In this document: positions 2,036 through 64,000 of the stretch, piece after piece | How positions within the stretch are numbered: position 1 is the first letter of the stretch | Layout: each line of letters starts with the position of its first letter | Assembly: GCA_045580715.1 (NCBI GenBank) | Contig: JAZNOH010000085.1 | Location: 33,585 to 97,584 of the forward strand | Source: Clostridia bacterium | Lineage (GTDB): Bacteria > Bacillota > Clostridia > UBA1381 | Length of the DNA stretch: 64,000 nt | Direction: 5' to 3' | Program-made: the position numbers and the translations under genes | Notes under the pieces: generated by a model | Database searches by the model: none | What the model was told of the DNA's origin: nothing | Seen by the model: only the letters and a program-made list of their open reading frames with translations

Positions 2036-2737
2036 ATGTATGTAATACTTGTGAATGATGATGACACATTGTATGGCTCAAAAAAAGAGCGTATTATGGA
2101 GAAATCGAAGTGTGTAGACAACTTAGTTTTTATCGTTGACCCTATTTATAGAAGCACATATGATATGACGAGTGCGACTGTAATGCTAGAGTATTTGCGA
2201 CCTATCAGCCGCAAGTACGAAACCGAGCTTCTTACTTTGTCTGATGAGAGATATAACGGCTTCCTGCAATATAAATTACCTTTCGATACCAATTTAACTT
2301 CGGAGCACGGCAGTTTGGAGTTGCAGTTGACCTTTGTATATACAGACCTCGATGCAAATGGTAATGGTATTCAGAGAGTCAGAAAGACCTCTCCTACTAT
2401 TATAGAAATTATCCCCATATCGGCTTGGTCGAACATAATCCCCGATTCGGCGCTTTCAAGCCTTGACCAGCGTCTAATAAAGCTGGACTCGGAAATTCGA
2501 GCGCTTGACGAAATGAATCGGATTGTTGCCGATAGCAAGGCTGATAATCTTAGATATAATAAAGACACAAACGAACTACAATTGTTGTCTGGCGAGAAAG
2601 AAATTGGCAACAAAGTAACATTAAAAACTGGCGACGCATCGTTGGATGATGGCGTTCCCGTTGTTGATTTTAATAGTGTTTCAAGCGGCGATTCTTCTGA
2701 TGAAGATGATGACGATGGCAATGTAGTTGAATTTTAA
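2036..2737 (+). CDS. tail-associated protein, function unknown (acidic C-terminus)
   Basis: 233-aa ORF with RBS AGAGGTGA. Tightly packed between tail genes. Ends SSDEDDDDGNVVEF. Confidence 0.6.
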   Translation: MYVILVNDDDTLYGSKKERIMEKSKCVDNLVFIVDPIYRSTYDMTSATVMLEYLRPISRKYETELLTLSDERYNGFLQYKLPFDTNLTSEHGSLELQLTFVYTDLDANGNGIQRVRKTSPTIIEIIPISAWSNIIPDSALSSLDQRLIKLDSEIRALDEMNRIVADSKADNLRYNKDTNELQLLSGEKEIGNKVTLKTGDASLDDGVPVVDFNSVSSGDSSDEDDDDGNVVEF

Positions 2738-2772
2738 AAAATAATTAAATTAATTGAAAGGAGGACAAACCT

Positions 2773-5700
2773 ATGAGTTTATCATTCGAAGACTCTCTGA
2801 AAAATAGTGTTACGAACAATATTGCAACTACGGAAAACGAAATTATTGAAGCGGTTGCCGTAATGAGCGTAGACAATACAAGTATAGATAGTCCTTCAAT
2901 TATGACGCTTGATGAAAGTTATGGAATAGCCGCATATTCTGGCGATGATGGTAGTTGGCAGCAGCATGCTGATTATGTATATTATTCAACCTTCTCTGAT
3001 GACAACATTTCTACCATTAGCGATACAAAAGATATTAATCTTGATGGAAAACAGTTTAACATAACTCAAGAAGAAAACTCTCAGTACATACCATTTGAAA
3101 TGTCGAGATACTATGACGGCTATGATTTGGTTAACGCTGTTATTTCTATTCATTATGAGACCAAGAGTGGACGACACGGTGCTTCCAAACCGATAAATGT
3201 AACCTTTAATAATGAAAAGATTAGATTTGGTTGGTTGGTTGATGCTGGTGCTACTCTTGATGCTGGAAAGCTTAAATTTGAAATTCATGCATACGGTACT
3301 GTAACGGGCAATGATGGAGTTTCTTTAAGTTATGTTTGGAAGAGTAAGAGCAATGATACTTTGAATGTACTTCAATCATTGTGCGATTGTGAAGAAGTGG
3401 TCAATAATATAGACGATACTTGGATACAGGAGTTGGTTACAGATGTTGCCGAAAAGGTTGCAGATGAGATTAAAAATGTTGCCGTTGGCGAACAAGTAAC
3501 GGCTGCTGAAAATGCTGCTGCTTCTGCTAAACAATCTGCTAACGATGCAAAACAATATGCAGAAAATGCGTCTACGGCTGCTACCGAAGAAGTTAATAAG
3601 GTTCTTGAAAATTACGCTACAACGAGTTATGTTGATGAAGCAGTTGCTGGTGTTGATGTTACGGAACAGTTGGCGAGTTATGTACGAACATCTGATTTGG
3701 AAACCAATTATTATACAAAGACTGATACTGAGCAAAGAATTTCAAGCGCCCTTGAAACTTACGCTACTACCCAATATGTAGACAACGCTATTGCAGATGC
3801 CGACATTTCTGGCAAGCTTGAAAATTATTATACAAAAGATGAGACTTATAACAAAACAGAAATAGATACTGCTCTTGCTAATGTAAGTGTTGATTTAACT
3901 GGTTATGCTACAGAAAAATATGTAGACGACAAGGCTGCCACCCTCTCTTCTTCTATTTCTACTAATACAGAGAATATTTCTTCTTTGGGCACGACGGTTA
4001 GCAACTTACAAAGCACTGTTAACTCTATAGACACCTCTCCTCGTCTTACTTATGATGTAGAATATAATGATGCAGAAAATCCTGATGTTGGAGAGAATGT
4101 TTTTGTTTTCTATGAAATTGAAAATGAAGGCGCGGAAAATGAAGTAAAAGAAGCTAAAAAGAAGTTCACTATTGTTGGTGGTTCAGGTGGAGGGGCTACA
4201 AGTAGTTCGTTGAAGATTGGCTATGTGACCACTTCTCCCCTTGTTGTTACAACAAACGACGAAGCAATTATTAAATATACTTTTTCTGGTACCGACTCTT
4301 CTGGTGATGCCGTGCCCGAAGGAACCGCGACTTGGAAAGTGGCTGGCAGAATTGTTGCAACAAACACCGCTCTTGCTGGTGAGAACTCTTTCGATGTTAC
4401 GGAATATCTTTCTGTTGGCACTCAAAAGGTTAACTTGTCTATTGTTGACGAAGCTGGTAGTTTGGTCACAAAAACTTGGACTGTGCAAAAAATTGATGTA
4501 AGACTTGAATCTACCTTTAATGACAAGTTGACTTATCCTATTGGAACCATATCTTTTGATTACACGCCTTATGGTGCTATTTCAAAGGTTGTTCATTTTG
4601 TTCTTGATGGTGTAGAAATTGGTACTGTTACCACCTCTTCTTCGGGTATCCCAATGGCATATGAAATTCCCACACAAGAACATGGTGCCCACTTGTTAGA
4701 GGTCTATATGACTGCTGAAATTAATGGTAATGCGATTGAGTCAAATCATATCGTGAAAGATATTATCTGGTATGATTCTGCGAGTGCCATTCCTGTAATT
4801 AGTACAGTATATCAGAATTTTACTGCAAGACAGTATGATGCCACTAATATTGAATATACCGTATATGACCCCACCACGGAAACTCCCACCGTGGAAATTG
4901 CCATAGATGGAAATGTTGTATCGACACCTACGCTTGATAAGGCTACGAATGTGTATTCATTTAAGACGGATGTTGTTGGTGAACATACTATCACCATTAC
5001 TTGCGGTGAGACTGTCAAGACCCTGATTGCCAATATTACAAAACTTGATATAAATATTACTCCCGTTACTGCTGGTTTAGTATTTGATTTTAATCCTTCT
5101 GGTAAATCAAATAATGATGCTGACAGAGTTTGGTCTAATGACACAGTTGCTATGACTGTATCTGATAACTTTGACTGGGTTAATGGTGGTTATCAGTATG
5201 ACGAAAATGGAGACCAGTATTTCTGTATTAAGGCTGGCACTTTTGCAACCATTGATTATCAATTGTTCGCAGACGACGCTAAGAAGAATGGTAAAGAAAT
5301 GAAGTTGGTGTTTAAGACAACCAATGTTGCAAAACCCGACGCCACATTCCTGTCTTGTATGGACAACACAACTGATTCTGACCATATTGGTATTCAGATG
5401 GATGTTCACGAAGCATTCATTTATGGTCAAGCTGGTAAGTTAGACCTCTCTTATTCTGAAGAAGATATTATTGAATTCGAGTTTAATATCTCTAAGAATA
5501 CAGAAGCAATTCCTATGGTAATGGGTTATGAGGATGGTGTTTCTACTCGTCCTATGGTCTACGACGACTCTTACAACTTTACACAGAATACACCTAAAGT
5601 TATATCTTTGGGTTCTGATTACTGTGATTTACATATATACAGGTTTAAGGTTTATAATACCTCTCTTACCGACAGAGGCATTTTGAATAACTTTATTGCC

Positions 5701-25058: not shown

Positions 25059-26492
25059 ATGATGCGTATGACTACTTTTGACAGAGAGAAGAAGGTCAGA
25101 AGAGCGTTTGACACTAGTAAGGTATTAAGAACGGCTGCCTATATTCGGGTGTCGAGCGACGAGCAGGTTAAGCATGGCTTCTCGATTGAGGCGCAGAAAG
25201 AGGGTTTGCAGAAATACGCCGAAGAACGAGGTTATAGGATTGTAGAATGGTACATTGATGAAGGTAAGTCTGCTCGTGGTAAAACTACGAAAAGGAAAGA
25301 ATATTTAAGACTTATCGAAGATGCTAAAAGAGGCAAATTTGAAATGATTATATTCAAATGTTTGGACAGATGGTTTAGGAATATAAGTGAGTATTACAAG
25401 GCTCAATCTGTTTTGGATGAAAAGGGTATTAACTGGGAATGTAGCGAAGAAGACTTTGATACAACCACTCGTGATGGTCGTTGGAAACTTCATATTTACC
25501 TCATGCTTGCACAAGATGAAGCGGACAAAACAAGTGAGCGTATCAATTATGTATTCGCACATAAAATTCAAAACAGAGAAGCTATATCTGGTTCCCAACC
25601 ATATGGCTTCAAAGTAAAAGAGATAGACGGTTTTAAAAGGGTTGTTAAAGACGAAAGTGTGTCTTGTATTGTTGATGATGTTTTTGATAACTTTGAACTT
25701 TTCAATTCTAAGAGAGCAACACTTTATTTCATACAAGACAAATACGATATTAAAGTGGAATACAAGTTAATAGGTCATATATTAACTAATCCTTATTATT
25801 ATGGTCATTATCGTGGTGTAGATGATTATATATGGGGTGGTTCTTATATTACAAAAGAACGCTACGACAAAATTCAGAAAATGTTAAAGAAAAATGTCAA
25901 AGCTCGTAAAAATAAAAAGAACCAAGATTATATTTTTAGCGGATTATTAGTATGCAGTATTTGTGGTTGCAAACTTTCGGCTCATTGTACCGACCTTCCT
26001 TTAGCAGATGGTAGCAAAAAAACTTATTTATTTTACAGATGCAGCAGGGCTGCTATGGCTAACAAATGTACTTCAAGGGGAACATTTAGTGAGATTAAGT
26101 TAGAGCAAAAACTAATACAGTCAATAGAAGAAGAAATTGAGGATTATATTTGCGAATATGAATTGGATGTCAAAAAAGAAAAGAAACCCAAAGTTGATAT
26201 TAAAAGTGTCAAAGAAGAGATACAACGGTTAAATGTTTCTTGGAGGAAGGGTCGTATGGAAGAATCGGAATATGATTATGAGTTTGAAAGATTGCAAAAG
26301 AAATTAGAAAAGGCACAAGAGGAGATTCCAGAAAAACACGATTTAACTCCTTTGTATGATTTCTTAAATAGTGGCTGGAAAGATATTTATGACACCTTAA
26401 CTTCTGTTGAGAAGAGGGCTTTGTGGCGCTCGGTAATTGACATAATAGAAGTTGATGTGTTGAATAAGGAATTTAAGATTAAGTTTATATAA
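25059..26492 (+). CDS. large serine recombinase (integrase)
   Basis: AAYIRVSSDEQVKHGFSIEAQ catalytic-serine motif. Resolvase domain, recombinase domain, Zn-ribbon CSICGCKL...YRCSRAAMANKC and a C-terminal coiled coil. The ATG at 25068 has the better spacing from AAAGGG. Confidence 0.9.
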   Translation: MMRMTTFDREKKVRRAFDTSKVLRTAAYIRVSSDEQVKHGFSIEAQKEGLQKYAEERGYRIVEWYIDEGKSARGKTTKRKEYLRLIEDAKRGKFEMIIFKCLDRWFRNISEYYKAQSVLDEKGINWECSEEDFDTTTRDGRWKLHIYLMLAQDEADKTSERINYVFAHKIQNREAISGSQPYGFKVKEIDGFKRVVKDESVSCIVDDVFDNFELFNSKRATLYFIQDKYDIKVEYKLIGHILTNPYYYGHYRGVDDYIWGGSYITKERYDKIQKMLKKNVKARKNKKNQDYIFSGLLVCSICGCKLSAHCTDLPLADGSKKTYLFYRCSRAAMANKCTSRGTFSEIKLEQKLIQSIEEEIEDYICEYELDVKKEKKPKVDIKSVKEEIQRLNVSWRKGRMEESEYDYEFERLQKKLEKAQEEIPEKHDLTPLYDFLNSGWKDIYDTLTSVEKRALWRSVIDIIEVDVLNKEFKIKFI

Positions 26493-28776: not shown

Positions 28777-29313
28777 TTAATTGTTGTGCGATAATGCAAG
28801 ATATAAAACCTCTCTGGACATTTCTGCGATTGACTTATTATATCCAGCATTATTAATCATATAGTCAACCTCGTCCCATATGCCATCGAACATTCCAACA
28901 TCGGACAAGTTCCTTCTGTAACTCTCTTCTATGTCATCGCCGCGCTGAAGAATCTTAATGAGTCTATCTCTGCGAGGAACATTTATATAGAAAGATATTG
29001 TATTAATATCTTTAATTTTAGAAACTTGTCTTAAACCGTGAGGTGTAAGAACTGCAACTTTATCATCGGTGCAATCTTTCTTAGCAACACCATAGTACCA
29101 ATCTCTATAGACTGCTTGTTCTGCAAAGAAATCTTGTTCACTTAATCTACGAAATTGCGATTTACTAATAAAATGATAATCAACACCATCAACTTCGCCC
29201 TCTCGTGGAGGTCTGGTCGTATATGATACTATTTTGTTGTATCCACAATTATCTACAAGATACTTTTCAATGCTGGATTTGCCGCTGGCGCTCTCGCCTA
29301 CTAATACAATCAT
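28777..29313 (-). CDS. gmk: guanylate kinase
   Basis: P-loop GESASGKSS and YTTRPPREGEVDGVDYHFIS signature. 4-nt overlap with the upstream ThyX-like gene. Confidence 0.8.
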   Translation of the reverse strand: MIVLVGESASGKSSIEKYLVDNCGYNKIVSYTTRPPREGEVDGVDYHFISKSQFRRLSEQDFFAEQAVYRDWYYGVAKKDCTDDKVAVLTPHGLRQVSKIKDINTISFYINVPRRDRLIKILQRGDDIEESYRRNLSDVGMFDGIWDEVDYMINNAGYNKSIAEMSREVLYLALSHNN

Positions 29314-31748: not shown

Positions 31749-31837
31749 TGGCGCAGAAAGAGGGATTCGAACCCCCGTGGGTGTTAGCCCTAACGGTTTT
31801 CAAGACCGCCTCGTTGTGACCGCTTCGATATTTCTGC
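31749..31837 (-). tRNA. tRNA-Ser (anticodon UGA), class II, CCA encoded
   Basis: Hand-folded. Acceptor GCAGAAA/TTTCTGC, anticodon loop CTTGAAA, long variable arm, T arm GGGGGTTCGAATCCCTC, 3-prime GCCA. Confidence 0.9.
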
Positions 31838-31842
31838 ATATT

Positions 31843-31928
31843 TGGTGTCGGTAGTGGGACTTGAACCCACACGATATCACTCGCCAGATTTTGAGTCTGG
31901 TGCGTCTGCCTATTCCGCCATACCGACA
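31843..31928 (-). tRNA. tRNA-Leu (anticodon CAA), class II, CCA encoded
   Basis: Acceptor TGTCGGT/ACCGACA, anticodon stem CCAGA/TCTGG with loop CTCAAAA, T arm GTGGGTTCAAGTCCCAC. Confidence 0.9.
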
Positions 31929-31932
31929 TAAT

Positions 31933-32007
31933 TGGTGACTCCAGCGAGAATCGAACTCGCGTTTTCGCCGTGAAAGGGCGATGTCTTAGCCGCTTGACTA
32001 TGGAGCC
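31933..32007 (-). tRNA. tRNA-Glu (anticodon UUC), CCA encoded
   Basis: Acceptor GGCTCCA/TGGAGTC, anticodon loop CTTTCAC, T arm CGAGTTCGATTCTCG. Confidence 0.9.
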
Positions 32008-32009
32008 AT

Positions 32010-32106
32010 TGGCGGAAGGTTTCGGACTTGAACCGAAACGCCGAATAAACTTCGACTACTCAGAGATTAGCAATCTCTTGCCTTACCAAATTAGGCTTAA
32101 CCTTCC
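32010..32106 (-). tRNA. tRNA-Ser (anticodon GCU), class II, CCA encoded
   Basis: Acceptor GGAAGGT/ACCTTCC, anticodon stem AGAGA/TCTCT with loop TTGCTAA, long variable arm, T arm TTCGGTTCAAGTCCGAA. Confidence 0.85.
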
Positions 32107-32699
32107 ACATATATAAGTACTCCAACAACCGCTATTGATAAGTAGCGATACGGTATTTTACCCTACTCCGCAGTAGCACACATCCATCTTTAGCATCGCG
32201 TACTATGAGCTACTCATTTAAGGGGTGAGCCAAATCCCACTAAAGAATCTACAACCCGACCTTTTATATGCCGTATATCGGTCAACGGCTATCTTTGTTG
32301 TTGGCTTTAAACGAAATCGCCTTTCGACGAAATCTCAACTCTTCCTACACTTGGATAGGCGAGCAATGATAGTTTTCTTTCGACTTTCGCCTATCGTAGA
32401 ATTGGTTCACTATCAACCTGTTTGTGCCTCTCCCTAACCCCTTCACTCCCTACGCCGAACAAAGGTCTTCATCGGAGTCAACATCATCTCAAGTATGGTG
32501 CTATGAACTGGTCTACCAGTTGTGCAAGATTTGACTACTATTCTGACATATAGACCACGCTTTACACTTATCTATGTCCGTTTTTGTTGTTTGCATAACC
32601 GTCAAGGACGGCATTGTGCTTACCAATGTCTTGGCACATTCGAATAGTAATCTTAACTTCCTTGATTGAGCGCAAGGGAACGCCTATGTCCTTTCGGAC
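32107..32699 (-). ncRNA. 593-nt ORF-free structured region inside the tRNA operon; candidate large ornate ncRNA (ROOL/GOLLD-like class)
   Basis: Flanked directly by tRNAs on the same strand. GC is visibly above the local background and there is no T-loop. Many local hairpins are present, including the GNRA-capped GUCC-GAAA-GGAC, CCAA-GACA-UUGG and UCGUC-GAAA-GGCGA, plus a 9-bp stem at 32354-32362/32387-32395. Confidence 0.6.
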
Positions 32700-32775
32700 T
32701 GGTCGGAATGACAGGATTTGAACCTGCGACATCTACATCCCAAATGTAGCGCTCTACCAACTGAGCCACATCCCG
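32700..32775 (-). tRNA. tRNA-Pro (anticodon UGG), CCA encoded
   Basis: Acceptor CGGGATG/CATTCCG, D arm GCTCAGTTGGTAGAGC, anticodon loop TTTGGGA, T arm CAGGTTCAAATCCTG. Confidence 0.9.
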
Positions 32776-32778
32776 ATT

Positions 32779-32853
32779 TGGCAGCGGTTGCTGGATTCGA
32801 ACCAGCGACTGCAGGAGTCAAAGTCCTGTGCCTTACCGCTTGGCGAAACCGCT
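32779..32853 (-). tRNA. tRNA-Gln (anticodon UUG), CCA encoded
   Basis: Acceptor AGCGGTT/AACCGCT, anticodon stem CAGGA/TCCTG with loop CTTTGAC, T arm CTGGTTCGAATCCAG. Confidence 0.9.
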
Positions 32854-32965: not shown

Positions 32966-32994
32966 ATTATATCACAATAATAATTATTTGTCAA
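32966..32994 (-). promoter_or_regulatory. consensus SigA-type promoter P1 (drives tRNA/ncRNA operon)
   Basis: Minus strand reads TTGACA-17 nt-TATAAT with TGTGA directly upstream of the -10 (-16 TRTG motif). An A/T-tract UP-like element lies at 32995-33030. Confidence 0.8.
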
Positions 32995-33108: not shown

Positions 33109-33594
33109 TCAGGCTTCTATCTTTAGCTGTTCATATTCGTCTTTCTTATTAGTACTTCCAAAACCGCCAACCCTAACATTATCAGTGTTGCCATTGTCTG
33201 CAACCAAGAAGTTAAAGAACGCGCCTTGAGCAATTCTATCGCCCCTCTTAATTGTCTGCGTTTCGTTACTAATATTCTTTAAGAAGACGCCAATGTTGCC
33301 ATCATTACCCTCATTAGAATAGTAGTCTGCATCAATCCAACCAGAAGTGTTTGCAAGCATAAACTTACCACCCATAGAGCTTCTAACATTAATAATCAAG
33401 CATTCATTACTCTTCATATAGGCTTTTATATCAGTCCACACTTTTGCGATGGCATTTGGCTCGATTGTGTAATTATCATTTGCATAAAAGTCATATGCCA
33501 TCGCCCTACTTGAACCTCTGGTTGGCAGAGTTATATCACCCACCGTTTTTCTCTTTTCGTCAATTACAACCTCAAATCCTCTAATTTTATTCAT
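33109..33594 (-). CDS. dut: dUTP diphosphatase (trimeric dUTPase)
   Basis: Motifs PTRGSSRAMAYDF, VRSSMG, GWIDADY, RGDRIAQ, VGGFGST. Confidence 0.85.
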   Translation of the reverse strand: MNKIRGFEVVIDEKRKTVGDITLPTRGSSRAMAYDFYANDNYTIEPNAIAKVWTDIKAYMKSNECLIINVRSSMGGKFMLANTSGWIDADYYSNEGNDGNIGVFLKNISNETQTIKRGDRIAQGAFFNFLVADNGNTDNVRVGGFGSTNKKDEYEQLKIEA

Positions 33595-33595
33595 T

Positions 33596-34162
33596 TTATT
33601 TCCTCGCTATTTTTATTAATTGATTTATACTTATTGACCCTATTGAATTACCTAAAACAATACATAAAAATTTTAGCAAATGGTCTAAATTAAAATTTAA
33701 AAATAAATATGGAAAATCTGCTATGCAATGTTCGTAACCAGACAAGATAAATGTCATAATACAAAATACTGTTATTATTGGTTTTTTACAATAAACCGCA
33801 ACAAACATTAAAACACCACACATTAATCCATATAAAAACAATCCAAAGTATCCATTGGAAAATTTTATGTCTGATACTTCTATTATTCTTTCATAGAATC
33901 CACTTTTCGAAATAGAACAAAAGATTGGAATCATTACACCGATTAAATTGCCAAGTAAAATTATTAATAAATTTTTAATTTCTTTTATCTTAAAGAATCC
34001 AATTTTGCCAGTGTATAGTTTTAAATCACATTCAATAATCACTAATAATGCTATTGAAAATAACATGGAACTTATATATGTATTTTGAACTTGAATCTGT
34101 AATGCAACGCCCAATCCAACTAAAATACCGCTTAATATAGATTGCTTAATAATCATTCCCAT
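33596..34162 (-). CDS. compact formate/nitrite transporter (FNT) family channel-like protein
   Basis: 188 aa and polytopic. FNT hallmarks occur in order: CDLKLYTGK (cf. GAELFTGN), LLGNLIG, LMCGVLMFVAVY, ILSGYEHCIADF (cf. GFEHSIANM), IVLGNSIGS. It overlaps the nrdG stop by 10 nt. Confidence 0.6.
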   Translation of the reverse strand: MGMIIKQSILSGILVGLGVALQIQVQNTYISSMLFSIALLVIIECDLKLYTGKIGFFKIKEIKNLLIILLGNLIGVMIPIFCSISKSGFYERIIEVSDIKFSNGYFGLFLYGLMCGVLMFVAVYCKKPIITVFCIMTFILSGYEHCIADFPYLFLNFNLDHLLKFLCIVLGNSIGSISINQLIKIARK

Positions 34163-34683
34163 AACACTATTTTTCCTTGTTCGAGGGAAGCTTTTACATT
34201 TATCACTCTTTGATTGCTGCTGCCTCTAAATTTCAATGTTAAATTTTTAAGTTCGTCTATGTACTTACCATCAACAAGAATGTCACACAATTCTACAATT
34301 GCCTGTCTATAAACGCTACTTAAATTTAAATTGTCGGTAACGATTGTTGGGAATATCTGCTCTAATGTGTATCCTGTATAAAGCCATATATCTTTTGTAG
34401 GAAACCTTTCTTTAATTTCTCTAATCAACAAATATATAGTTTCCACATTTTCGTCTTCAAGTGGGTGTCCACCAGAAAAGGTAATACCTTGAATGTAGGG
34501 CTTATCTAACGCTTCAAACAACTCCGCTTTGGCAATTTCGTCGAATGGCTTTCCCGAACACAAACTCCATGTTTCTGGATTATGGCACCCCTTGCAATGC
34601 AAGGAGCACCCGCTAACCCAAAGAACCACTCTTATGCCTTCACCATTGGCAATTGATGTCTTTTCTATCTTATGATAATTCAT
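34153..34683 (-). CDS. nrdG: anaerobic ribonucleotide reductase activating protein (radical SAM)
   Basis: CSLHCKGCHN (CX3CX2C) cluster motif. Immediately downstream of nrdD. Confidence 0.9.
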   Translation of the reverse strand: MNYHKIEKTSIANGEGIRVVLWVSGCSLHCKGCHNPETWSLCSGKPFDEIAKAELFEALDKPYIQGITFSGGHPLEDENVETIYLLIREIKERFPTKDIWLYTGYTLEQIFPTIVTDNLNLSSVYRQAIVELCDILVDGKYIDELKNLTLKFRGSSNQRVINVKASLEQGKIVLWE

Positions 34684-36855
34684 TTAATCACCAGCTCCTA
34701 AATGAACATAGCGATTCTTAATTTCTTCTGTGCGCCCCTTATTCCAGAAATTCTCTCCAAGATATCCACAGGTTCTTCTTACTACATTCATCTTGCTCTT
34801 GTCTCTGTTTCCACAATTAGGACAATACCAGTCGAGATTGTCATCAATCATAATCTCTCCGTCATATCCGCATACATGGCAGTAATCAGACTTGGTATTG
34901 ATTTCTGCATACTGAATATTGTCGTAGATATACTGAATTAAAGATAGTACAGCGGGGATATTATTTGTAAGATTAACAGCCTCAACATAAGATATACAGC
35001 CACCACTACTAATTGGATGGAACTGAGATTCAAACTTTAACTTATCGAATGCATTAATGTGTTCTTCAACAAACACATGATAACTATTCGTTAAGAAGTT
35101 TCTATTAGATTCGCCGTCAACTGTGCCCCACCGTCTTACTGTTGCCTGTGCAAACTTCTCTGTAAGACTTTCTGAAGGAGTGCCATAAAGTGCGAAACCA
35201 AGTCCAGTACGCTTCTTCCAATCTAAAACTTTCTTCTTCATATAGGAAACAATTTCAAGAGCTAACTTTTCACCTTCGGGTGTTGTATGTGATACACCAA
35301 GCAAAGCCTTAACACATTCGTACACGCCGATATAGCCAAGTGTAATGGTAGAATAGCCCTCTTGAAGTAAAGGATAAATTGGGGCGTGTTTAGGCAATCT
35401 TGCAATAGCACCGTGCTGCCAATGAATAGGAGATGCATCTGATGTAACATTCTTTAACTTCTCATATCGAAGAAGAAGACTTTCATAACAAAGTTCAAGT
35501 CTTTCATCGAATATCTTCCAAAAGTCCTCAATGCTTCCTTGAGCAGACATACCACAGTCGGCAAGGTTAATAGAGGTAAGACCCATATTAAATCTACCAT
35601 ACCACTTGTATTTGCCTTCTTCATTATTAATATCACCCTTATAAGGCGAGAGCCAAGCTCTACAACCCATACAACCAAATACATTGCCTTCGTAATTCTG
35701 ACGCATATGTTTTGCAGAAATAAAGTCGGGCATCATTCTCTTAGAAACACACTCTGCCGCAAGTTCTGTGATATACCAATACTCACTATCTTCGTGTATG
35801 TTATTCTCGTCAAGAACATAGAGAAGTTTAGGGAATGCAGGTGTAACCCATACGCCAACTTCATTCTTCATACCTTTAATACGCTGACGAATAAATTCTT
35901 CGATAATCATAGCGGTTTCCTTCTCATATTCGGAGTTTTCACCGATATACATAAATACGGAAAGGAAGGGTGACTGTCCGTTGCTGGTCTGGAGTGTATT
36001 TATCTGATATTGGAATGTCTGTACACCATCACGAACCTCTTTGGCAAGACGCTTTGCAACCACCGATTCAATTGCGTCAGCAGTTATAAGATTTTCATCC
36101 CAAAGTTCATGAGCTTCTTCCTCTACTTCTTTTCTGATTATCTCTTCGCTAATTCTTACAAAAGGTGCAAGATGCGAAAGAGTGATAGTTTGACCACCAA
36201 ACTGAGCTGACGCAACCTGTGCAATAATCTGTGTAGCAATGGTACAAGCAGTTCGGAAACTATGAGGTTTTTCAATCATCTTTCCATTGATGACCGTACC
36301 ATTCTGAAGCATATCTTCAAGATTAACAAGACAACAATTGAAACTGTGATTTAGATAATGCCCAAGGTCGTGAATATGAATAATGCCATCTTGGTGAGCC
36401 TGAGCAATATGAGGAGGCAGCATCATTCTAAGAGAAATATCCTTAGAAACTTCTTCGGCTACCAAGTCTCTACAAGTAGAAATCAAAGCTTCATTTTTAT
36501 TTGAGTTCTCAGATAAAGACGCTTTATTAGTGCCGTCAATAATGCCTAGCACTTTGTTGTCAATGGTGTTGTGCTGCCTCTGATATTCTCTTACTGCTCG
36601 ATAATCTTCGTATGCCTTGGCAGTAAGTCTTTGCTTTTTGGAAATAAGCTTATTGTACACCAGCGCTTCGATATCAGATATTGATACTTGCTCAACATCC
36701 CTCAATTCCATTTCGATTTCGTTGGCGATATCATTTGCGATTTTCTCTTTTTCGATGCCGCTACCGTGCTTCATAGCCTTGAGAATTGCTATGCTAATTT
36801 TATCTTTGTTAAACGACACAATATGACCGTCTCTTTTTACAACTGTATTAGCCAT
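34684..36855 (-). CDS. nrdD: anaerobic ribonucleoside-triphosphate reductase (class III)
   Basis: N-terminal ATP-cone (VVKRDGHIVSFNKDKI), C-terminal Zn motif CHVCG...CPNCG and glycyl-radical motif RRTCGYLG. Confidence 0.92.
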   Translation of the reverse strand: MANTVVKRDGHIVSFNKDKISIAILKAMKHGSGIEKEKIANDIANEIEMELRDVEQVSISDIEALVYNKLISKKQRLTAKAYEDYRAVREYQRQHNTIDNKVLGIIDGTNKASLSENSNKNEALISTCRDLVAEEVSKDISLRMMLPPHIAQAHQDGIIHIHDLGHYLNHSFNCCLVNLEDMLQNGTVINGKMIEKPHSFRTACTIATQIIAQVASAQFGGQTITLSHLAPFVRISEEIIRKEVEEEAHELWDENLITADAIESVVAKRLAKEVRDGVQTFQYQINTLQTSNGQSPFLSVFMYIGENSEYEKETAMIIEEFIRQRIKGMKNEVGVWVTPAFPKLLYVLDENNIHEDSEYWYITELAAECVSKRMMPDFISAKHMRQNYEGNVFGCMGCRAWLSPYKGDINNEEGKYKWYGRFNMGLTSINLADCGMSAQGSIEDFWKIFDERLELCYESLLLRYEKLKNVTSDASPIHWQHGAIARLPKHAPIYPLLQEGYSTITLGYIGVYECVKALLGVSHTTPEGEKLALEIVSYMKKKVLDWKKRTGLGFALYGTPSESLTEKFAQATVRRWGTVDGESNRNFLTNSYHVFVEEHINAFDKLKFESQFHPISSGGCISYVEAVNLTNNIPAVLSLIQYIYDNIQYAEINTKSDYCHVCGYDGEIMIDDNLDWYCPNCGNRDKSKMNVVRRTCGYLGENFWNKGRTEEIKNRYVHLGAGD

Positions 36856-36880: not shown

Positions 36881-38848
36881 TTATGAGTTTAACATTCTAA
36901 TCAATTCTTCTTCGTCTATGATAGGAATGTTTAACTCTTTTGCCTTCTTGTTCTTACCGCTTGTAGATGTAATATCATTATTTACAAGATAAGAAGTCTT
37001 CGCTGAAACTGAACCACTTACCTTGCCACCAGCAGCCTCTATCCTTTCTTTTGCTTCGTCTCTATTGGCAAAATGATTAAGAGAGCCAGTAATAACAAAG
37101 GTCAATCCAAATAGATTGTTGGAAGTTACGACTTCTTCGATTGTCTCAAACTCCAACTCTTTTGCGAGTTCTCTTATTTCACCGATATGATTGCGAATAA
37201 ATTCATTAATTTTTTCTGCTGTTTGGGAACCGATTCCATCAAGTTCCTCCCAGTCAAAATCGGAAGACCTTATAACGAAACTATGAAAATCTTCAAAGCG
37301 TGAAGCAATTGTTTTTGCGGTACTGCGTCCTACATCTGGAATACTTAATGCATAAATAAACCTGTCAAGCGTGGTGTTTCTACTATTTTCAATAGCATCA
37401 AGCAACTTATTAACGGACTTCTCACCAAAACCCTCTATATTCATCATTTCATAATAGTGGGGTTTGAGATTATAAATATCTTTAAAAGAAGAAAGCCAAC
37501 CAAGTTCAATGAACTTTTCTATTGTTGCTTCGCTCATTCCTTCTATATCCATTGCATTTTTAGAAACAAAATGAGTTAACCTACCAAGCAGCTTACCCTT
37601 GCAATTGTCATTGGTACACATAAGAACTTTCGAATCGTTGTCTTGCTTAATCTCCGTATCACCGCCACAAATGGGGCAAGTAGACGGAATAAAGATATGG
37701 TCGCGCTCTTTGCCCAATGCCGTTCTCTCATCGGCTGAAACATTTCTTTTTACTTGAGGAATAATCTGGTTTGCCTTATAGACTTCGATAATATCACCCT
37801 TATGCAAATCCAAACTTGTTAGAATAGAAATGTTATGAACAGATGCTCTCTCAACAGTTGAGCCGTCTATGTCTACTGGTTTGAATACGGCAGTAGGAGT
37901 AATCTGCCCAGACTTGCCTATTGTCCAATCTATATCAATCAACTCAGTTTCATACACATCGTCTTTAGCCTTATAAGCGATGCCATTCTTAAAGTGGTGG
38001 CTTGTAGCACCAAGAGACTTGCCGTATTCTATGTCGTTAAACTTAAATACGATGCCATCACAAGGCAGTCCATCTTCTTCTGCATAGTCAAATACATAAT
38101 CAATTGTATTCTGCAGCTTCTTGGGGTCTAAATTAACAGCAGACCAAAACGGCACGACATCAAAGCCTAAACCTTTTGCCCCATTTAAATTATCTTTGAG
38201 GCTATTGCCGCCGCCCTCAATAACATCCCAAGCTATAAATCTCAACTTTCTCTTTGTTACCAAAGATGTGTCAAGAACGGCAAGTGTACCAGCGGCTAAA
38301 TTACGGCTATTTTTAAACTCACCATTCTTATTGATTTCGGCAAAATCTTCATCAGTAATAATTGCTTCGCCATCCACAATATAAGTTCCTTCCTTATTAA
38401 TCTTTAAAGGAACATTCTTAAACTGTTTAACATGCTCGGTAATGTCGGAACCTATATAGCCATTGCCTCTAGTTTCCGCACTTGCAAGAATGCCGTCTTT
38501 GTAGGTCAGAGAACAAGTTAAGCCGTCAAGCTTAATGCTTGCTATCAGCTCCTTATTATTGGCAAACTTAACAAGCTCTTCAACAGTATGACACTTCTCA
38601 AGACTAAGCATGGGATGAGAGTGTGCTATTTCATTAAGCTCGGTCAATACCTTTGCACCTACATTATGAGTAGGGGAATTCGCCAATACAAAACCAGTTT
38701 CTTCTTCTAACTGTCTTAAATCTTCAAGTCTTGCATCGAATTGTTCATCTGACATAATGGGTGTACCAGTGTTGTAATAAGCATTGGCGGCTTCATTAAG
38801 AATTGAAACCATACCCTTCATCATATCTAATTCAATCTGATTTATCAT
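36881..38848 (-). CDS. ligA: NAD-dependent DNA ligase
   Basis: Adenylation motif IKLDGLT, Zn finger CPICGG...C.N..CKG, HhH repeats and a C-terminal BRCT-like segment (FVITGSL). Confidence 0.9.
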   Translation of the reverse strand: MINQIELDMMKGMVSILNEAANAYYNTGTPIMSDEQFDARLEDLRQLEEETGFVLANSPTHNVGAKVLTELNEIAHSHPMLSLEKCHTVEELVKFANNKELIASIKLDGLTCSLTYKDGILASAETRGNGYIGSDITEHVKQFKNVPLKINKEGTYIVDGEAIITDEDFAEINKNGEFKNSRNLAAGTLAVLDTSLVTKRKLRFIAWDVIEGGGNSLKDNLNGAKGLGFDVVPFWSAVNLDPKKLQNTIDYVFDYAEEDGLPCDGIVFKFNDIEYGKSLGATSHHFKNGIAYKAKDDVYETELIDIDWTIGKSGQITPTAVFKPVDIDGSTVERASVHNISILTSLDLHKGDIIEVYKANQIIPQVKRNVSADERTALGKERDHIFIPSTCPICGGDTEIKQDNDSKVLMCTNDNCKGKLLGRLTHFVSKNAMDIEGMSEATIEKFIELGWLSSFKDIYNLKPHYYEMMNIEGFGEKSVNKLLDAIENSRNTTLDRFIYALSIPDVGRSTAKTIASRFEDFHSFVIRSSDFDWEELDGIGSQTAEKINEFIRNHIGEIRELAKELEFETIEEVVTSNNLFGLTFVITGSLNHFANRDEAKERIEAAGGKVSGSVSAKTSYLVNNDITSTSGKNKKAKELNIPIIDEEELIRMLNS

Positions 38849-39139: not shown

Positions 39140-39168
39140 ATTATACACAATCAAAATTGATTTGTCAA
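39140..39168 (-). promoter_or_regulatory. consensus SigA-type promoter P2
   Basis: Minus strand TTGACA-17 nt-TATAAT. The same flanking A/T-tract element as P1. It overlaps the 3-prime end of the helicase gene. Confidence 0.8.
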
Positions 39169-44777: not shown

Positions 44778-45539
44778 TTATTTGTTATTAATTATATTTT
44801 CAATTCTTTCTTTTGACATTTCACAATATTCTTTGCTAATATCTATACCAATAAATTTTCTATTATTTAATACAGCCATCCTACCAGTTGTGCCGCTACC
44901 AACAAACGGGTCAAACACTAAATCTCCCTCGTTACTCCAACTAACAATATGGTCATTAGCAATTTGTTCGGGAAACACTGCTGGATGAGATGTTTTATTT
45001 TGAGCAATTGCAATATCCCAAATATTATCTTTATATCTTTCATTGTTTAATATAAAAGATTTTTTAGTTCTCCCATTTTCACCACCCATATTTTTGCAAG
45101 TTGAATCATACTTTTTACCACCCATTTTACATTGCTGCATTATTGGGTTAAATGTCTTGGGGGTTCCCTTTGAAAAAATAAACATATATTCAAAAACATC
45201 AAAATATCTTTTTGTTTTTACTTTGGGCATTGGATTAGTCTTTCGCCAAATCATAGTGTCGTGTAAATTAAAGCCAATTTCTTTAAAATACAATGCCTGT
45301 TTAAATGATGTTCCAGATTCCGAACCCCTTTCGGTTTTATCACCGACTACCCAGACAACCACGCCACCGTCTTTTGTTATACGATATAACTCTCTTGCTA
45401 TGCCTTCAAAATCAAAACAATATCCATTATATTTTCTTAAATTATCATATGGTGGACTTGTTACCGTCAAATCTATGCAATTATCTGGAATTTTTTCTCT
45501 CATAACATCAAGACAATTGCCGTTTATAATCTTGTACAT
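44778..45539 (-). CDS. DNA methyltransferase (N4/N6 beta-class, SPPY motif)
   Basis: Motif IV LTVTSPPYDNLRKY is N-terminal and motif I FDPFVGSGTTG is C-terminal. No adjacent endonuclease. Confidence 0.85.
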   Translation of the reverse strand: MYKIINGNCLDVMREKIPDNCIDLTVTSPPYDNLRKYNGYCFDFEGIARELYRITKDGGVVVWVVGDKTERGSESGTSFKQALYFKEIGFNLHDTMIWRKTNPMPKVKTKRYFDVFEYMFIFSKGTPKTFNPIMQQCKMGGKKYDSTCKNMGGENGRTKKSFILNNERYKDNIWDIAIAQNKTSHPAVFPEQIANDHIVSWSNEGDLVFDPFVGSGTTGRMAVLNNRKFIGIDISKEYCEMSKERIENIINNK

Positions 45540-45561
45540 ATGTATATTACCTTTCTATCAA

Positions 45562-46365
45562 TTAACCGACATTAGCGGACTTAATCTCTTCTAACACACT
45601 ATTTAATCTATCAATGCTAAATTTGCACTGCTCTTCTGATAACTCACTGCCAATATAATTTAAACCTAACTTGATGCAGGCAACACCAGTAGTTCCAGTT
45701 CCATTAAAACTATCATAAATAATAGCATTCGGTTTCGCATATATATTTAATAGTTGCTCACAAAGCTCAGAAGAATATGTAGCTTTATTTAGTTTGTTTG
45801 TGCCATCATTGTTTTTTGCTTCAACAAAATTAAAAATATTTTCATAGAACTTCTGTCCAGTTCTCTCATTTTGGCTTTTAACCTTTTTATTTGCAACAAA
45901 TGTTTTGTATTCATCTTTTCTACAGAATACAAAGACAAATTCGCAAATTCTTGTAAGCTTATTATGACTAACATTATTAGGCAAAGCCGACTTCTTTTTC
46001 CATATAATTGTATCAGCGATTGTAAAATTGGTCTTGTTAATTACTTCAGCAATTGTTAAATACATCTGCTCAGGGTTTTCATTGCCATAAGACATATTGT
46101 ATAGAATACAACCGTTTTCTTTTAAAATAGAATCATAGTGGTTAAAAATATCTATCGTCCAATCAGTATATTCATCCGTGTTTCTTTGTTCGAGATAAAT
46201 ATCATATCTTCTTTCGTGATTATCCATTCCTCTTTCAAGATTTCCACTATTTCTGCCAGTGTTATACGGAGGCGAAGTAAGTACGATATCCACTTTTCCT
46301 CCAACCCTGTTAATTTTCTTCATTGTCTGTAAACAATCTTCGTTGTAAATCTTAAACATATACAC
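45562..46365 (-). CDS. DNA methyltransferase (N4/N6 beta-class, SPPY motif)
   Basis: IVLTSPPYNTGRN and IYDSFNGTGTTG. First gene downstream of promoter P3. Confidence 0.85.
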   Translation of the reverse strand: MYMFKIYNEDCLQTMKKINRVGGKVDIVLTSPPYNTGRNSGNLERGMDNHERRYDIYLEQRNTDEYTDWTIDIFNHYDSILKENGCILYNMSYGNENPEQMYLTIAEVINKTNFTIADTIIWKKKSALPNNVSHNKLTRICEFVFVFCRKDEYKTFVANKKVKSQNERTGQKFYENIFNFVEAKNNDGTNKLNKATYSSELCEQLLNIYAKPNAIIYDSFNGTGTTGVACIKLGLNYIGSELSEEQCKFSIDRLNSVLEEIKSANVG

Positions 46366-61649: not shown

Positions 61650-62489
61650 TTATAACTGCATTTTTGCAGCTTGAACACAGTTCTTCATTAACATACTGAC
61701 AGTCATTGCGCCAACCCCTCTAGGTACGGGTGTAATAGCAGATACAATGTCTTTTACATCCTCAAAGTCAACATCGCCACACAGAGTACCATCTTCCTGA
61801 CGATGAATGCCGACATCAATAACAACCGTATTCGGACTAATGTATTCTCTGTTAAAGAATTTCGGCTTGCCGATTGCACAAACAAGGATATCTGCTTCTC
61901 TGCAAATCTGCTTTAATCCTCTTGTTTTTGAATGGCATATCGTGACCGTACCATTATGACGAAGCAACTCTATTGCGGTAGGTTTACCAACGATATTACT
62001 TCTTCCTACAACAACGCAATTCTGCCCTTCAATTTTGATATTGTTTGCTTTTAGCAATTCAATAATGCCCTTTGCCGTACAAGGCACAAATGTTTCTTTG
62101 CCAATTGTTAACTTTCCAACATTTGATTCGTGGAAACCATCAACATCCTTTTCTGGAGCAATCGCTTGAAGTACTTTGTGTTCGTCAATATGACTTGGCA
62201 GGGGTAGCTGTACCAAAATGCCATTAATATTCTTATCTTTATTCAGCCTTTCGATAGTTTGAATTAATCTATCTTCTGACACCTCGCCAAATAGAAATGT
62301 AGTCGTTGTAATACCTACATATTTGCAAGCATTCTCTTTGTTCCTAACATATGTAGACGAAGCGGCATTGTTGCCAACTTGTATTACGGCAAGACGCACA
62401 CTTTGACCATTCACAGCCATCTCTTTGACCGTTTCTTTTACTTCATCTTTTACTTTGTCTGCAAGTTCTTTCCCATTTAATAGTTTCAT
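61650..62489 (-). CDS. folD: bifunctional methylenetetrahydrofolate dehydrogenase/cyclohydrolase
   Basis: VIQVGNNAASSTYVRNK, GILVQLPLP, DVDGFH, VVVGRSNIVGKP, TPVPRGVGAMT. The ATG at 62489 lies behind AAGGAAG. Confidence 0.88.
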   Translation of the reverse strand: MKLLNGKELADKVKDEVKETVKEMAVNGQSVRLAVIQVGNNAASSTYVRNKENACKYVGITTTTFLFGEVSEDRLIQTIERLNKDKNINGILVQLPLPSHIDEHKVLQAIAPEKDVDGFHESNVGKLTIGKETFVPCTAKGIIELLKANNIKIEGQNCVVVGRSNIVGKPTAIELLRHNGTVTICHSKTRGLKQICREADILVCAIGKPKFFNREYISPNTVVIDVGIHRQEDGTLCGDVDFEDVKDIVSAITPVPRGVGAMTVSMLMKNCVQAAKMQL

Positions 62490-62499
62490 TTTTTCTTCC

Positions 62500-62808
62500 T
62501 TACATATAATTATATCCAAGACTTTCGTGCTGTCTTGCCAAGTCAATCAGGTAAGACGGAGGATTTCTGCCAGAGCCATAATAATATCTCTTAATTTGAT
62601 TTTCTCTCGCTATCAACTTGGTCACAAGTTTACCACTCAAGAGATTATACACAATAATAATCCCGTTGTTTGTTATACAATGACGCTCCGCTCCGTGCGG
62701 ATGACCTTTATCAACAATAAATTCGTCAACCATATAACCGTACTTAAAGTGTTCATCAATGAACTTTTCTCGTTCACTTCTTTGACTCTGATAATGCTTG
62801 CTTACCAT
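62500..62808 (-). CDS. hypothetical protein
   Basis: ATG at 62808 (MVSKHYQ...) behind AGAGGAAAAG. It overlaps the end of the YopX-like gene by 35 nt. The start is uncertain. Confidence 0.5.
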   Translation of the reverse strand: MVSKHYQSQRSEREKFIDEHFKYGYMVDEFIVDKGHPHGAERHCITNNGIIIVYNLLSGKLVTKLIARENQIKRYYYGSGRNPPSYLIDLARQHESLGYNYM

Positions 62809-63205: not shown

Positions 63206-64000
63206 TTATATTTCTATTAATTTAATTGCTTTATCAATTTCATCAACAACATAATCAATATCTTCATATGTAATATCGTCTGATAAGCTAATGCGAATCG
63301 TTCTTATTGCCTGTTCGTTACTAAGACCGATTTCTTTAAGCACATGACTTGGCTCTATGGAATGACTATTACAAGCTGAACTAGTTGATATTTGAATACC
63401 ATCCATATCCAAAATATACAAAAGAGCTTCGCCTGTTATATTCTGAGGGAAAGTTACATTAATGTTATTAGGCAAACGATAATAGCTATCGCCATTTAAT
63501 TCGCAATCAAATTTTTGTTCAAGAAGGTCAATAAAATAATTTCTCTTCTTACACACTTCTTCAATTGCACTTTGACTAACATTACAATAATCAACAGCCT
63601 TGCTCAGTCCAATGATGCCAAATGTATTTTCTGTACCACCACGAAGATGACTCTCTTGGCTACCGTAAACAAGCGGCTGAATGTTTATGCACTCTTTTTT
63701 GTATAAAAAGCCAACGCCTTTAAGTACTGGCGATATTTTATGCCCACTCGCGCTCATTAAATCAATATCCAACTCTTTTACATTAATGGGGATATGTCCA
63801 AATGCCTGAGTTGCATCAACATGTAGAACTCCACCATATTCATGAACTAAATGAGCAATCTCTTTTATCGGTTGAACAGTTCCTATTTCATTATTAGCCA
63901 TATGTATACTTACCAAAATCGGTTCATTCCCACTGTTAGCCAACGCCCTCTCCAAAGACCGACAATCAACAAATCCAAACTCATCTACTTTGCAATATCG
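63206..64000 (-). CDS. cysteine desulfurase (class V aminotransferase, NifS/IscS-like), 5-prime end beyond window
   Basis: PLP-lysine motif SASGHKI..LKGVGFLY, RGGTEN, catalytic-Cys loop SSACNS. The frame stays open to the window edge (RYCKVDEFGFVDCRSLERAL...). Confidence 0.85.
   Translation of the reverse strand, partial: RYCKVDEFGFVDCRSLERALANSGNEPILVSIHMANNEIGTVQPIKEIAHLVHEYGGVLHVDATQAFGHIPINVKELDIDLMSASGHKISPVLKGVGFLYKKECINIQPLVYGSQESHLRGGTENTFGIIGLSKAVDYCNVSQSAIEEVCKKRNYFIDLLEQKFDCELNGDSYYRLPNNINVTFPQNITGEALLYILDMDGIQISTSSACNSHSIEPSHVLKEIGLSNEQAIRTIRISLSDDITYEDIDYVVDEIDKAIKLIEI

Follow-up and report, generated by a model that had tools for sequence, protein, structure and literature searches.

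Many strict anaerobes and the phages that infect them obtain deoxyribonucleoside triphosphates (dNTPs) only through class III ribonucleotide reductases (RNRs), and formate is a central interspecies electron carrier in the gut and the rumen. Why, then, does a phage keep a gene for a small channel-like protein at the end of its genes for such a reductase? The question is raised by a stretch of 64,000 nucleotides (nt) of a Clostridia metagenome-assembled genome (MAG; GCA_045580715.1, contig JAZNOH010000085.1, positions 33,585 to 97,584), here called the window, in which a phage gene for a protein of 188 residues overlaps nrdG, the gene for the activase of the class III reductase NrdD. An initial annotation of the sequence had proposed that the protein is a formate/nitrite transporter (FNT) and serves as the phage's own formate channel for anaerobic dNTP synthesis, and the analysis described here supports this proposal. 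That formate is the substrate, that import is the direction and that NrdD is the beneficiary we infer from the sequence, and a formate channel feeding the phage class III RNR appears moderately probable.

The 188-residue channel protein and its reductase partner

The Pfam profile Form_Nir_trans (PF01226) matches the protein with 64.3 bits at a gathering score of 34.6, residues 5-181 corresponding to positions 22-235 of the 240 positions of the profile. The match is far above chance and, judged from the sequence, the protein is a genuine member of the FNT family (PF01226/TCDB 1.A.16), while PHROGs holds no family for it. An AlphaFold2 monomer model built on 30 homologues (predicted local distance difference test 91.4, predicted template-modelling (TM) score 0.86) has six membrane helices of which the second and the fifth are broken: TM1 (residues 2-24), TM2a (28-44), an omega-loop with T51, TM2b (50-56), TM3 (59-83), a short helix (89-100) ending in K100, TM4 (105-125), TM5a (128-141), an S-loop with E144-H145, TM5b (146-155) and TM6 (159-187). 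The model is thus the aquaporin-like six-helix protomer with its omega-loop and S-loop breaks, and a Foldseek search of the PDB returned FNT channels only at the top, namely the hydrosulfide channel HSC (TM score 0.83), Vibrio cholerae FocA (0.82), NirC (0.82) and PfFNT, the scores to HSC, FocA and NirC ranging from 0.80 to 0.83. Profile and predicted fold both bear out the polytopic FNT protein of the initial annotation.

Among solved structures the closest in sequence is V. cholerae FocA, and hhalign aligned the family profile to Escherichia coli FocA with a probability of 95.6. In this alignment F35 corresponds to F75 of FocA, L39 to L79, L49 to L89, T51 to T91, N72 to N121, K100 to K156, F138 to F202, E144 to E208, H145 to H209 and N172 to N262, so that the pore Thr and His (T51 and H145) and the vestibule and structural residues K100, E144, N172, F35 and F138 are the same as in FocA; the matched pore and vestibule residues are invariant across the 30-member family alignment. 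It follows from the same alignment that the motifs LKLYTGK (residues 47-53) and SGYEHCIADF (141-150), which the initial annotation had picked out, hold the omega-loop Thr and the S-loop His, respectively. H209 of FocA is required for pH-dependent uptake (PMC12559229). Departures from FocA are G116 at the site of N172 and D149 at the site of N213; the N213D variant of FocA is functional and Gly is the sole natural variant reported at N172 (PMC9380403). By homology, the protein would be a pentameric formate/formic acid channel.

What has been trimmed relative to FocA is the first ~28 residues, ~29 residues of the stretch that joins TM5b to TM6, and 7-10 residues from every other loop. Only four residues stand ahead of TM1, and residues 1-28 of FocA have no counterpart. 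The protein is therefore the minimal family member that the initial annotation had suspected, a six-helix core in which the broken TM2 and TM5 are kept and the N-terminal helix and the loops are lost. In FocA, PflB is a cross-linking partner of the N-terminal helix, and translocation depends on Y25, K26, T28 and K29 of this helix; it is alignable in only 38% of FNTs (PMC12559229).

The missing helix, which gates FocA and couples it to PflB (PMC12559229), gives some ground for a membrane role other than supply, as does the frequency of small membrane proteins in phages. The protein might be a leak or depolarising pore acting in takeover or lysis timing, might serve in superinfection exclusion, or might poison a host FNT as a blocking subunit so that formate made by pyruvate formate-lyase (PFL) stays in the cell. 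Such a role is very unlikely, however, in that the entire pore-lining set is invariant under purifying selection, the same short form is the only FNT in free-living bacteria and so works alone, there is no FNT in the putative host that could be poisoned, and the gene sits in the replication/nucleotide module and not in the lysis module.

With regard to the reductase, formate is the established reductant of the NrdD subtype of T4, E. coli and Lactococcus (PMC4390871, PMC9176816). In NrdDs of this type (T4, E. coli, L. lactis), one Cys of the bottom face (C79 in T4) pairs with a Met of the finger loop that stands two residues ahead of the thiyl Cys, and there is neither a third Cys nor an active-site Glu (PMC4493059, PMC9176816, PMC4390871). 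Over its whole length the window NrdD can be aligned to T4 NrdD (1h78; E=9e-116) and to PDB 9d3x, its best solved relatives, and it keeps T4 Cys79, Met288, Cys290 and Asn311 as well as the glycyl-radical and Zn-ribbon motifs. Its finger loop is GCMGCR (residues 394-399), C-M-G-C-R being aligned to P-M-G-C-R of T4; NCC at 173-175 contains the single bottom-face Cys, GRFNMG at 420 has Asn at the site of T4 N311 with no Cys-Cys and no Glu, and RRTCGYLG at 693 is the glycyl-radical motif. By these residues the window NrdD is classified as formate-type, that is, the form reportedly named NrdD1 by Wei et al. and NrdDc in RNRdb. The active-site pattern, which the initial annotation had left to be checked, is consequently the formate one (C-M-G-C-R, a single NC, Asn) and not that of the thioredoxin type. 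Moreover, each FNT-linked NrdD with a readable region has M-G-C-R, a single NC and Asn, which, in a comparison confined to FNT-linked NrdDs, agrees with the formate model and discriminates little.

Genomic neighbours of short FNTs

Homologues of the window FNT number 665 in the allowed length range in a set of 5.8 billion proteins, with lengths of 166-230 residues among the matches listed; few are named, and those are called "formate/nitrite transporter family protein" and come from Dorea or Lachnospiraceae MAGs. Searched with a profile, 1.84 billion cluster representatives gave 1,403 matches at E<=1e-10, of which nearly all of the best 150 are 180-220 residues long. The window FNT therefore belongs to a large family of FNTs of 180-220 residues from gut and rumen Clostridia, and no paper treating such FNTs as a group was found in the literature. 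In the class of the MAG, a short FNT occurs in 42 of 399 genomes (about one in ten) and in 29 of 216 genera. Within the family to which the MAG belongs, seven of 30 other genomes have a Pfam FNT match and every match spans just 549-633 nt, so that these genomes have no FNT other than the short form; no FNT match is present in a 99%-complete genome from the MAG's genus.

To follow the gene neighbourhoods, 68 loci from IMG/VR and 80 from species-representative genomes encoding FNT relatives were examined, the markers NrdD, NrdG, Dut, ligase and others being located by tblastn. The co-occurrence for which the initial annotation had wanted a survey is indeed found: nrdD and/or nrdG lie beside the short FNT in 47 of the 68 IMG/VR loci, and the linkage is present also in several metagenome or MAG contigs. 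When neighbours were clustered, NrdD (47 loci) and NrdG (38 loci) far outnumbered all others. Three gene orders occur, namely nrdD-nrdG-FNT as in the window, FNT-nrdD-nrdG, and nrdD-FNT-nrdG, the last in 33 loci which form one well-supported clade of mostly rumen-type contigs. The whole row lig-nrdD-nrdG-FNT-dut recurs in three loci (L005/L006 and L075), with FNT identities of 77-81%. Four large FNT-bearing viral contigs have no adjacent nrdDG and carry NrdD or NrdD fragments elsewhere, an observation not used as evidence. Among 50,697 INPHARED phage records, tblastn with the window FNT found nothing, and tblastn with an FNT of the nrdD-FNT-nrdG type found one unannotated 4.6-kb fecal contig only.

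In a maximum-likelihood phylogeny of 135 short FNTs with FocA as the outgroup, linkage to the RNR genes requires 11 changes of state, and at least six of these changes are forced by branches with a Shimodaira-Hasegawa-like approximate likelihood-ratio (SH-aLRT) support of >=95; 50 rows were labelled as linked in this scoring, one of which (L144) is actually beside pflA and not nrdG. The linked lineages are interleaved with cellular ones, and the linked NrdDs outside the window's own clade are 26-53% identical to the window NrdD. From these three observations the nrdDG-FNT association has been assembled, or retained, many times, in phages on about ten separate occasions. In addition, the ratio of nonsynonymous to synonymous substitution rates (dN/dS) among the phage FNT copies is 0.11-0.25 (eight pairs, seven of them estimable) and that between the window FNT and its relatives is 0.11-0.12, which is purifying selection.

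Two side observations concern the reductase genes of these loci. In L005 (positions 2256-5503; also in L006) nrdD is split into parts of 304 and 422 residues by an open reading frame (ORF) of 266 residues that has no Pfam match and has homologues in nine viral loci. The C-terminal part of NrdD is 96-98% identical between L005/L006 and the window and NrdG and FNT are 72-77% identical, and this points to an intron or homing element accompanied by local gene conversion. The second is a 166-residue ORF without a Pfam match (e.g., L029:1729-2229) which is conserved in 20 IMG/VR loci of the nrdD-FNT-nrdG clade as the first or second ORF 3' of nrdG or FNT, and could belong to the reductase module as a further accessory gene.

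In cellular genomes, metabolic neighbours that are informative were found at four loci. An isolate, Lachnospiraceae bacterium LCP25S3_G4 (L148), and a further locus (L133) have the order Pyr_redox, formate-tetrahydrofolate (THF) ligase, methenyl-THF cyclohydrolase, S component of an energy-coupling factor (ECF) transporter, folD and FNT; at L144 the order is FNT-pflB-pflA, the same layout as focA-pflBA; and at L140 pflBA is head to head (divergent) with the FNT gene. Apparent NrdG matches in L140 and L144 were rejected because they are PflA. Thus the informative neighbours are three different kinds of formate-making or formate-using enzymes, and this is the strongest argument at the level of sequence for formate as the probable substrate, few as the loci are. 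The coaBC genes upstream of FNT were considered as a functional clue and rejected, having no tie to FNT chemistry and being confined to one Dorea/Lachnospiraceae group: the CoaBC proteins of these loci are 79-100% identical to the Dorea query and all fall in one part of the FNT tree.

These neighbours also bear on what else the channel might carry. FNTs are known for nitrite (NirC; cyanophage focA-nirA, PMC8115048), hydrosulfide (HSC) and lactate (PfFNT), HSC is the top Foldseek match, and most cellular homologues have neighbours unrelated to formate. The protein could then conduct another small monovalent anion or acid (nitrite, hydrosulfide, lactate or acetate) in detoxification or pH balance, with no tie to the reductase. 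Nevertheless, a nitrite or sulfite reductase gene is seen beside none of ~180 loci, the metabolically informative neighbours are all formate enzymes (NrdD1, PflB/PflA, Fhs/FchA/FolD) and the best sequence match among solved structures is a FocA; we hold such a substrate to be quite unlikely.

A related possibility is that formate is carried, mainly for the folate one-carbon pool. Host Fhs would make 10-formyl-THF and phage FolD methylene-THF, from which deoxythymidine monophosphate (dTMP) and purines are made, and the adjacency to nrdDG would mark a nucleotide-metabolism module only; this is compatible with formate supply to NrdD. The phage does encode folD, the MAG has fhs and thyA, and the window FNT is followed by dut, as happens in several further loci. 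Furthermore, folD directly adjoins the short FNT gene in L148, L133 and an Acetivibrio ethanolgignens scaffold with the order nrdD'-nrdG-FNT-folD (L115), and lies ~4 kb away in L050. Yet folD was found within 6 kb of FNT in only four of ~150 loci, the distance in the window is 27 kb, and in 33 loci FNT stands between nrdD and nrdG, genes that normally abut. We therefore regard the folate pool as an unlikely main destination of the formate.

Several points weigh against formate supply to NrdD as the function of the window FNT. The substrate specificity of FNTs is not readable from sequence, and HSC matches the AlphaFold2 model as well as FocA does. The protein scores far under the cut-offs of the NCBIfam models for FNT, FocA and NirC, and is therefore not an orthologue of any named FNT subfamily; this includes FocA, whose equivalog model TIGR04060 gave 33.8 bits at a cut-off of 290.1. 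The MGCR signature may be shared by nearly all phage NrdDs and would then discriminate weakly. Most cellular FNT genes have uninformative neighbours such as coaBC, homoserine dehydrogenase, MatE and histidine kinases, and pfl, fhs, folD or nrd is found within 1.5 kb in none of 29 further cellular loci. The putative host makes formate by PFL, so a need for import is not obvious, and the binning of a phage contig into a MAG is not proof of the host. An FNT is missing from all 14 IMG/VR loci whose NrdDs come closest to that of the window (41-87% identical), and these include lig-nrdD-nrdG-dut operons with an NrdD identity of 83-87% (L203:3929-7198, L200:1600-5118), in which nrdG is followed by dut after 28 nt (L203) or the slot is filled by an unrelated ORF of 87 residues (L200). 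The FNT as a fixed part of this operon type was consequently rejected; because the closest nrdDG operons are without it, the gene is, on comparison of the operons, dispensable and an accessory insert at the nrdG|dut junction.

Such an insert might also be a neutral passenger acquired from a Lachnospiraceae-like host and without any role in infection, and the nesting of the window FNT clade among cellular Lachnospiraceae FNTs, together with the FNT-less operons just mentioned, would agree with that. This is extremely unlikely in view of the low dN/dS, the translational coupling of the gene and the linkage itself, which seems to have arisen repeatedly, in three orders and with widely diverged NrdDs.

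The gene row, the phage and its putative host

The minus-strand order nrdD, nrdG and the 188-residue frame, their coordinates and the 10-nt overlap of the FNT start with the nrdG stop, all given in the initial annotation, were confirmed on reading the sequence (Table 1). At the nrdG/FNT junction (...TTATGGGAATGA), the frame opened by the FNT ATG at 34162 runs over the nrdG stop codon (34153-34155). A second in-frame ATG at 34156 makes a classic ATGA overlap of 4 nt with that stop and is taken as the start in a public protein record of 186 residues (P0001); the longer N-terminus is kept in homologues. The nrdD stop directly abuts the nrdG start, and 1 nt separates the FNT stop from the dut ATG. 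NrdD scores 832 bits with NF006732 (cut-off 657), and NrdG is a member of the activase family by TIGR02491 (188.3 bits, cut-off 126.1) and PF13353 (E=2e-48). The ligase ORF is 77-80% identical to its syntenic homologue in L005 and L075, and the ligase Pfam domains were recorded for the syntenic homologue in the relatives L005/L006.

Table 1. Features of the window (positions in the 64,000-nt stretch)
Feature	Position	Strand	Basis or remark
65-residue ORF		-	First gene of the row between 39.2 kb and 33.1 kb
NAD-dependent DNA ligase (lig)	36881-38848	-	ORF list; 25-nt gap to nrdD downstream
nrdD, class III (anaerobic) ribonucleoside-triphosphate reductase, 723 residues	34684-36855	-	PF13597 E=1.5e-175, ATP-cone, Gly_radical
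nrdG, radical-SAM (S-adenosylmethionine) activase of NrdD, 176 residues	34153-34683	-	TIGR02491, PF13353, phrog_626
Short FNT-family channel, 188 residues	33596-34162	-	PF01226 and AlphaFold2 model
dut (dUTPase)	33109-33594	-	Last gene of the block; PF00692, NF010561 E=4e-35, phrog_135
nrdG stop/FNT start overlap, 10 nt	34153-34162	-	Sequence read
Sigma-70-like promoter TTGACA-17-TATAAT	39140-39168	-	Consensus scan, 12/12; pattern match only
Second sigma-70-like promoter TTGACA-17-TATAAT	32966-32994	-	12/12 pattern match; ahead of tRNA cluster
Six tRNA genes: Ser-TGA, Leu-CAA, Glu-TTC, Ser-GCT, Pro-TGG, Gln-TTG	31749-32853	-	Just 3' of dut
folD (methylene-THF dehydrogenase/cyclohydrolase)	61650-62546	-	PF02882 and PF00763
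Class-V aminotransferase-fold protein	63206-64000	-	Cysteine desulfurase or SerC-like; beside folD; runs off the window
Tandem N6/N4 DNA methyltransferase genes (253 and 267 residues)	44778-46365	-	Adjoin the DNA polymerase gene
Guanylate kinase	28777-29313
Large serine recombinase	25059-26492	+
Giant ORF, 2,382 residues	2773-9921	+	phrog_14959 (function unknown); in structural region

No terminator-like hairpin was found in the 6.6 kb scanned, which leaves none between the two promoters; both promoters match the consensus at 12 of 12 positions. The first promoter is probably the start of a transcription unit orf65-lig-nrdD-nrdG-FNT-dut, and the second would be that of the next unit, the tRNA cluster.

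The following course of events is proposed. The phage would transcribe lig-nrdD-nrdG-FNT-dut as a single unit, and ribosomes ending nrdG would re-initiate on FNT (translational coupling). The protein would insert in the host membrane during anaerobic infection, as a pentamer by homology, and presumably would not be gated by PflB because the N-terminal helix of FocA is missing. The Lys vestibule and the Thr/His centre would admit, or equilibrate, formate as formic acid, driven by the pH gradient, and NrdD would oxidise the imported formate to CO2 while reducing ribonucleoside triphosphates, formate being a stoichiometric reductant at one formate per dNTP. The same pool may be drawn on by phage FolD and host Fhs for dTMP and purines as a side benefit. 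A wider proposal is that short FNTs (180-220 residues) are distinct, self-sufficient formate channels without the PflB-coupling helix which gut and rumen phages captured about ten times and wired into nrdDG, that formate supply, beside the amount of enzyme, limits dNTP synthesis in anaerobic infection, and that the phage channel adds environmental formate in hosts lacking an FNT; here we find the balance for and against about even.

The window is phage DNA, because it carries tail-fibre families, a family-A-like DNA polymerase (phrog_405), an ExoV/Dda-like helicase, a serine recombinase and the six tRNA genes. The whole contig of 101,519 bp has terminase and portal genes at its beginning and no bacterial flank. 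A terminal repeat was sought on it and not found, and since the contig moreover begins inside a terminase-like gene, and relatives are 114-159 kb long, it is probably incomplete. Two integration enzymes are encoded by the phage, the large serine recombinase and a tyrosine integrase (contig C85 13817-14851, L167). The folD gene and the aminotransferase-fold gene beside it may serve one-carbon or Fe-S supply. The GC content is 0.42-0.45 at 12-22 kb and 0.31-0.39 in the rest.

The MAG into which the contig was binned carries pflB-pflA, fhs (contig C104), thyA and its own NrdD of the MGCR type, and no second FNT was found in it at a completeness of 85%. If the MAG is the host, the phage FNT would add exchange with the outside, because the MAG is without another FNT. 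The glycyl-radical C-terminus of the MAG nrdD (L158/L163, G000 contig C8) is a separate Pfam match ~130 nt past the main frame; a split gene, a frameshift or a misassembly would each account for it.

Comparison with known systems

The components are not new in themselves: FNT channels, formate-dependent NrdD and phage auxiliary genes have been described before, and a phage FNT has been reported once, in cyanophages (PMC8115048). In the literature, no described nrdDG operon with a transporter gene was found, and none that pairs an FNT with phage nrdDG. If the channel does supply the phage NrdD with formate, its gene would indicate for the first time, at the level of genomes, that the supply of reductant is limiting and that phages have a remedy of their own. 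Auxiliary metabolic genes would gain a new category, importers of a cosubstrate for an enzyme which the phage encodes, and phage replication in the gut and the rumen would be tied to formate. In addition, an FNT of 188 residues with all pore residues and without the N-terminal gate would be a natural minimal construct for models of FNT gating and proton coupling.

The class III RNR and NrdG of T4, E. coli and Lactococcus have the same NrdD subtype motifs as the window; unlike the window, T4 and the cultured phages of INPHARED have no such FNT. HSC of Clostridioides difficile (PDB 3TDO) and NirC (PDB 4FC4), the best Foldseek matches, have TM scores of 0.80-0.83 and identities of 22-24%, and HSC shares with the short-FNT family an origin in Firmicutes. 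However, HSC is linked to the asrABC sulfite reductase and NirC to nitrite reductase, and no such neighbours are seen for the short FNTs; both are also longer (~250-270 residues) and have N-terminal helices, unlike the window FNT.

FocA (E. coli, Salmonella and Vibrio; PDB 3KCU, 3KLY, 3Q7K and 9G49) has the fold in common with the window FNT at TM scores of 0.76-0.82, and has the same pore residues (T91, H209, K156, E208, N262, F75, F202, L79 and L89 in FocA numbering). Both genes adjoin a gene for a formate-handling enzyme, in the case of FocA in the focA-pflB-pflA operon. The differences are in length, 285 residues in FocA against 188, and in the partner, as PflB produces formate whereas NrdD consumes it. 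The nearest likeness in phages is the focA-nirA pair of cyanophages in viromes of oxygen-minimum zones (PMC8115048), where, too, a phage FNT derived from the host and under purifying selection lies beside an enzyme that uses the transported anion. The cyanophage protein, however, is marine, transports nitrite, has the full FNT length with 86% identity to Prochlorococcus FocA and is accompanied by a nitrite reductase, whereas that of the window is a miniature, accompanied by a class III RNR, and belongs to Clostridia phages of the gut and the rumen.

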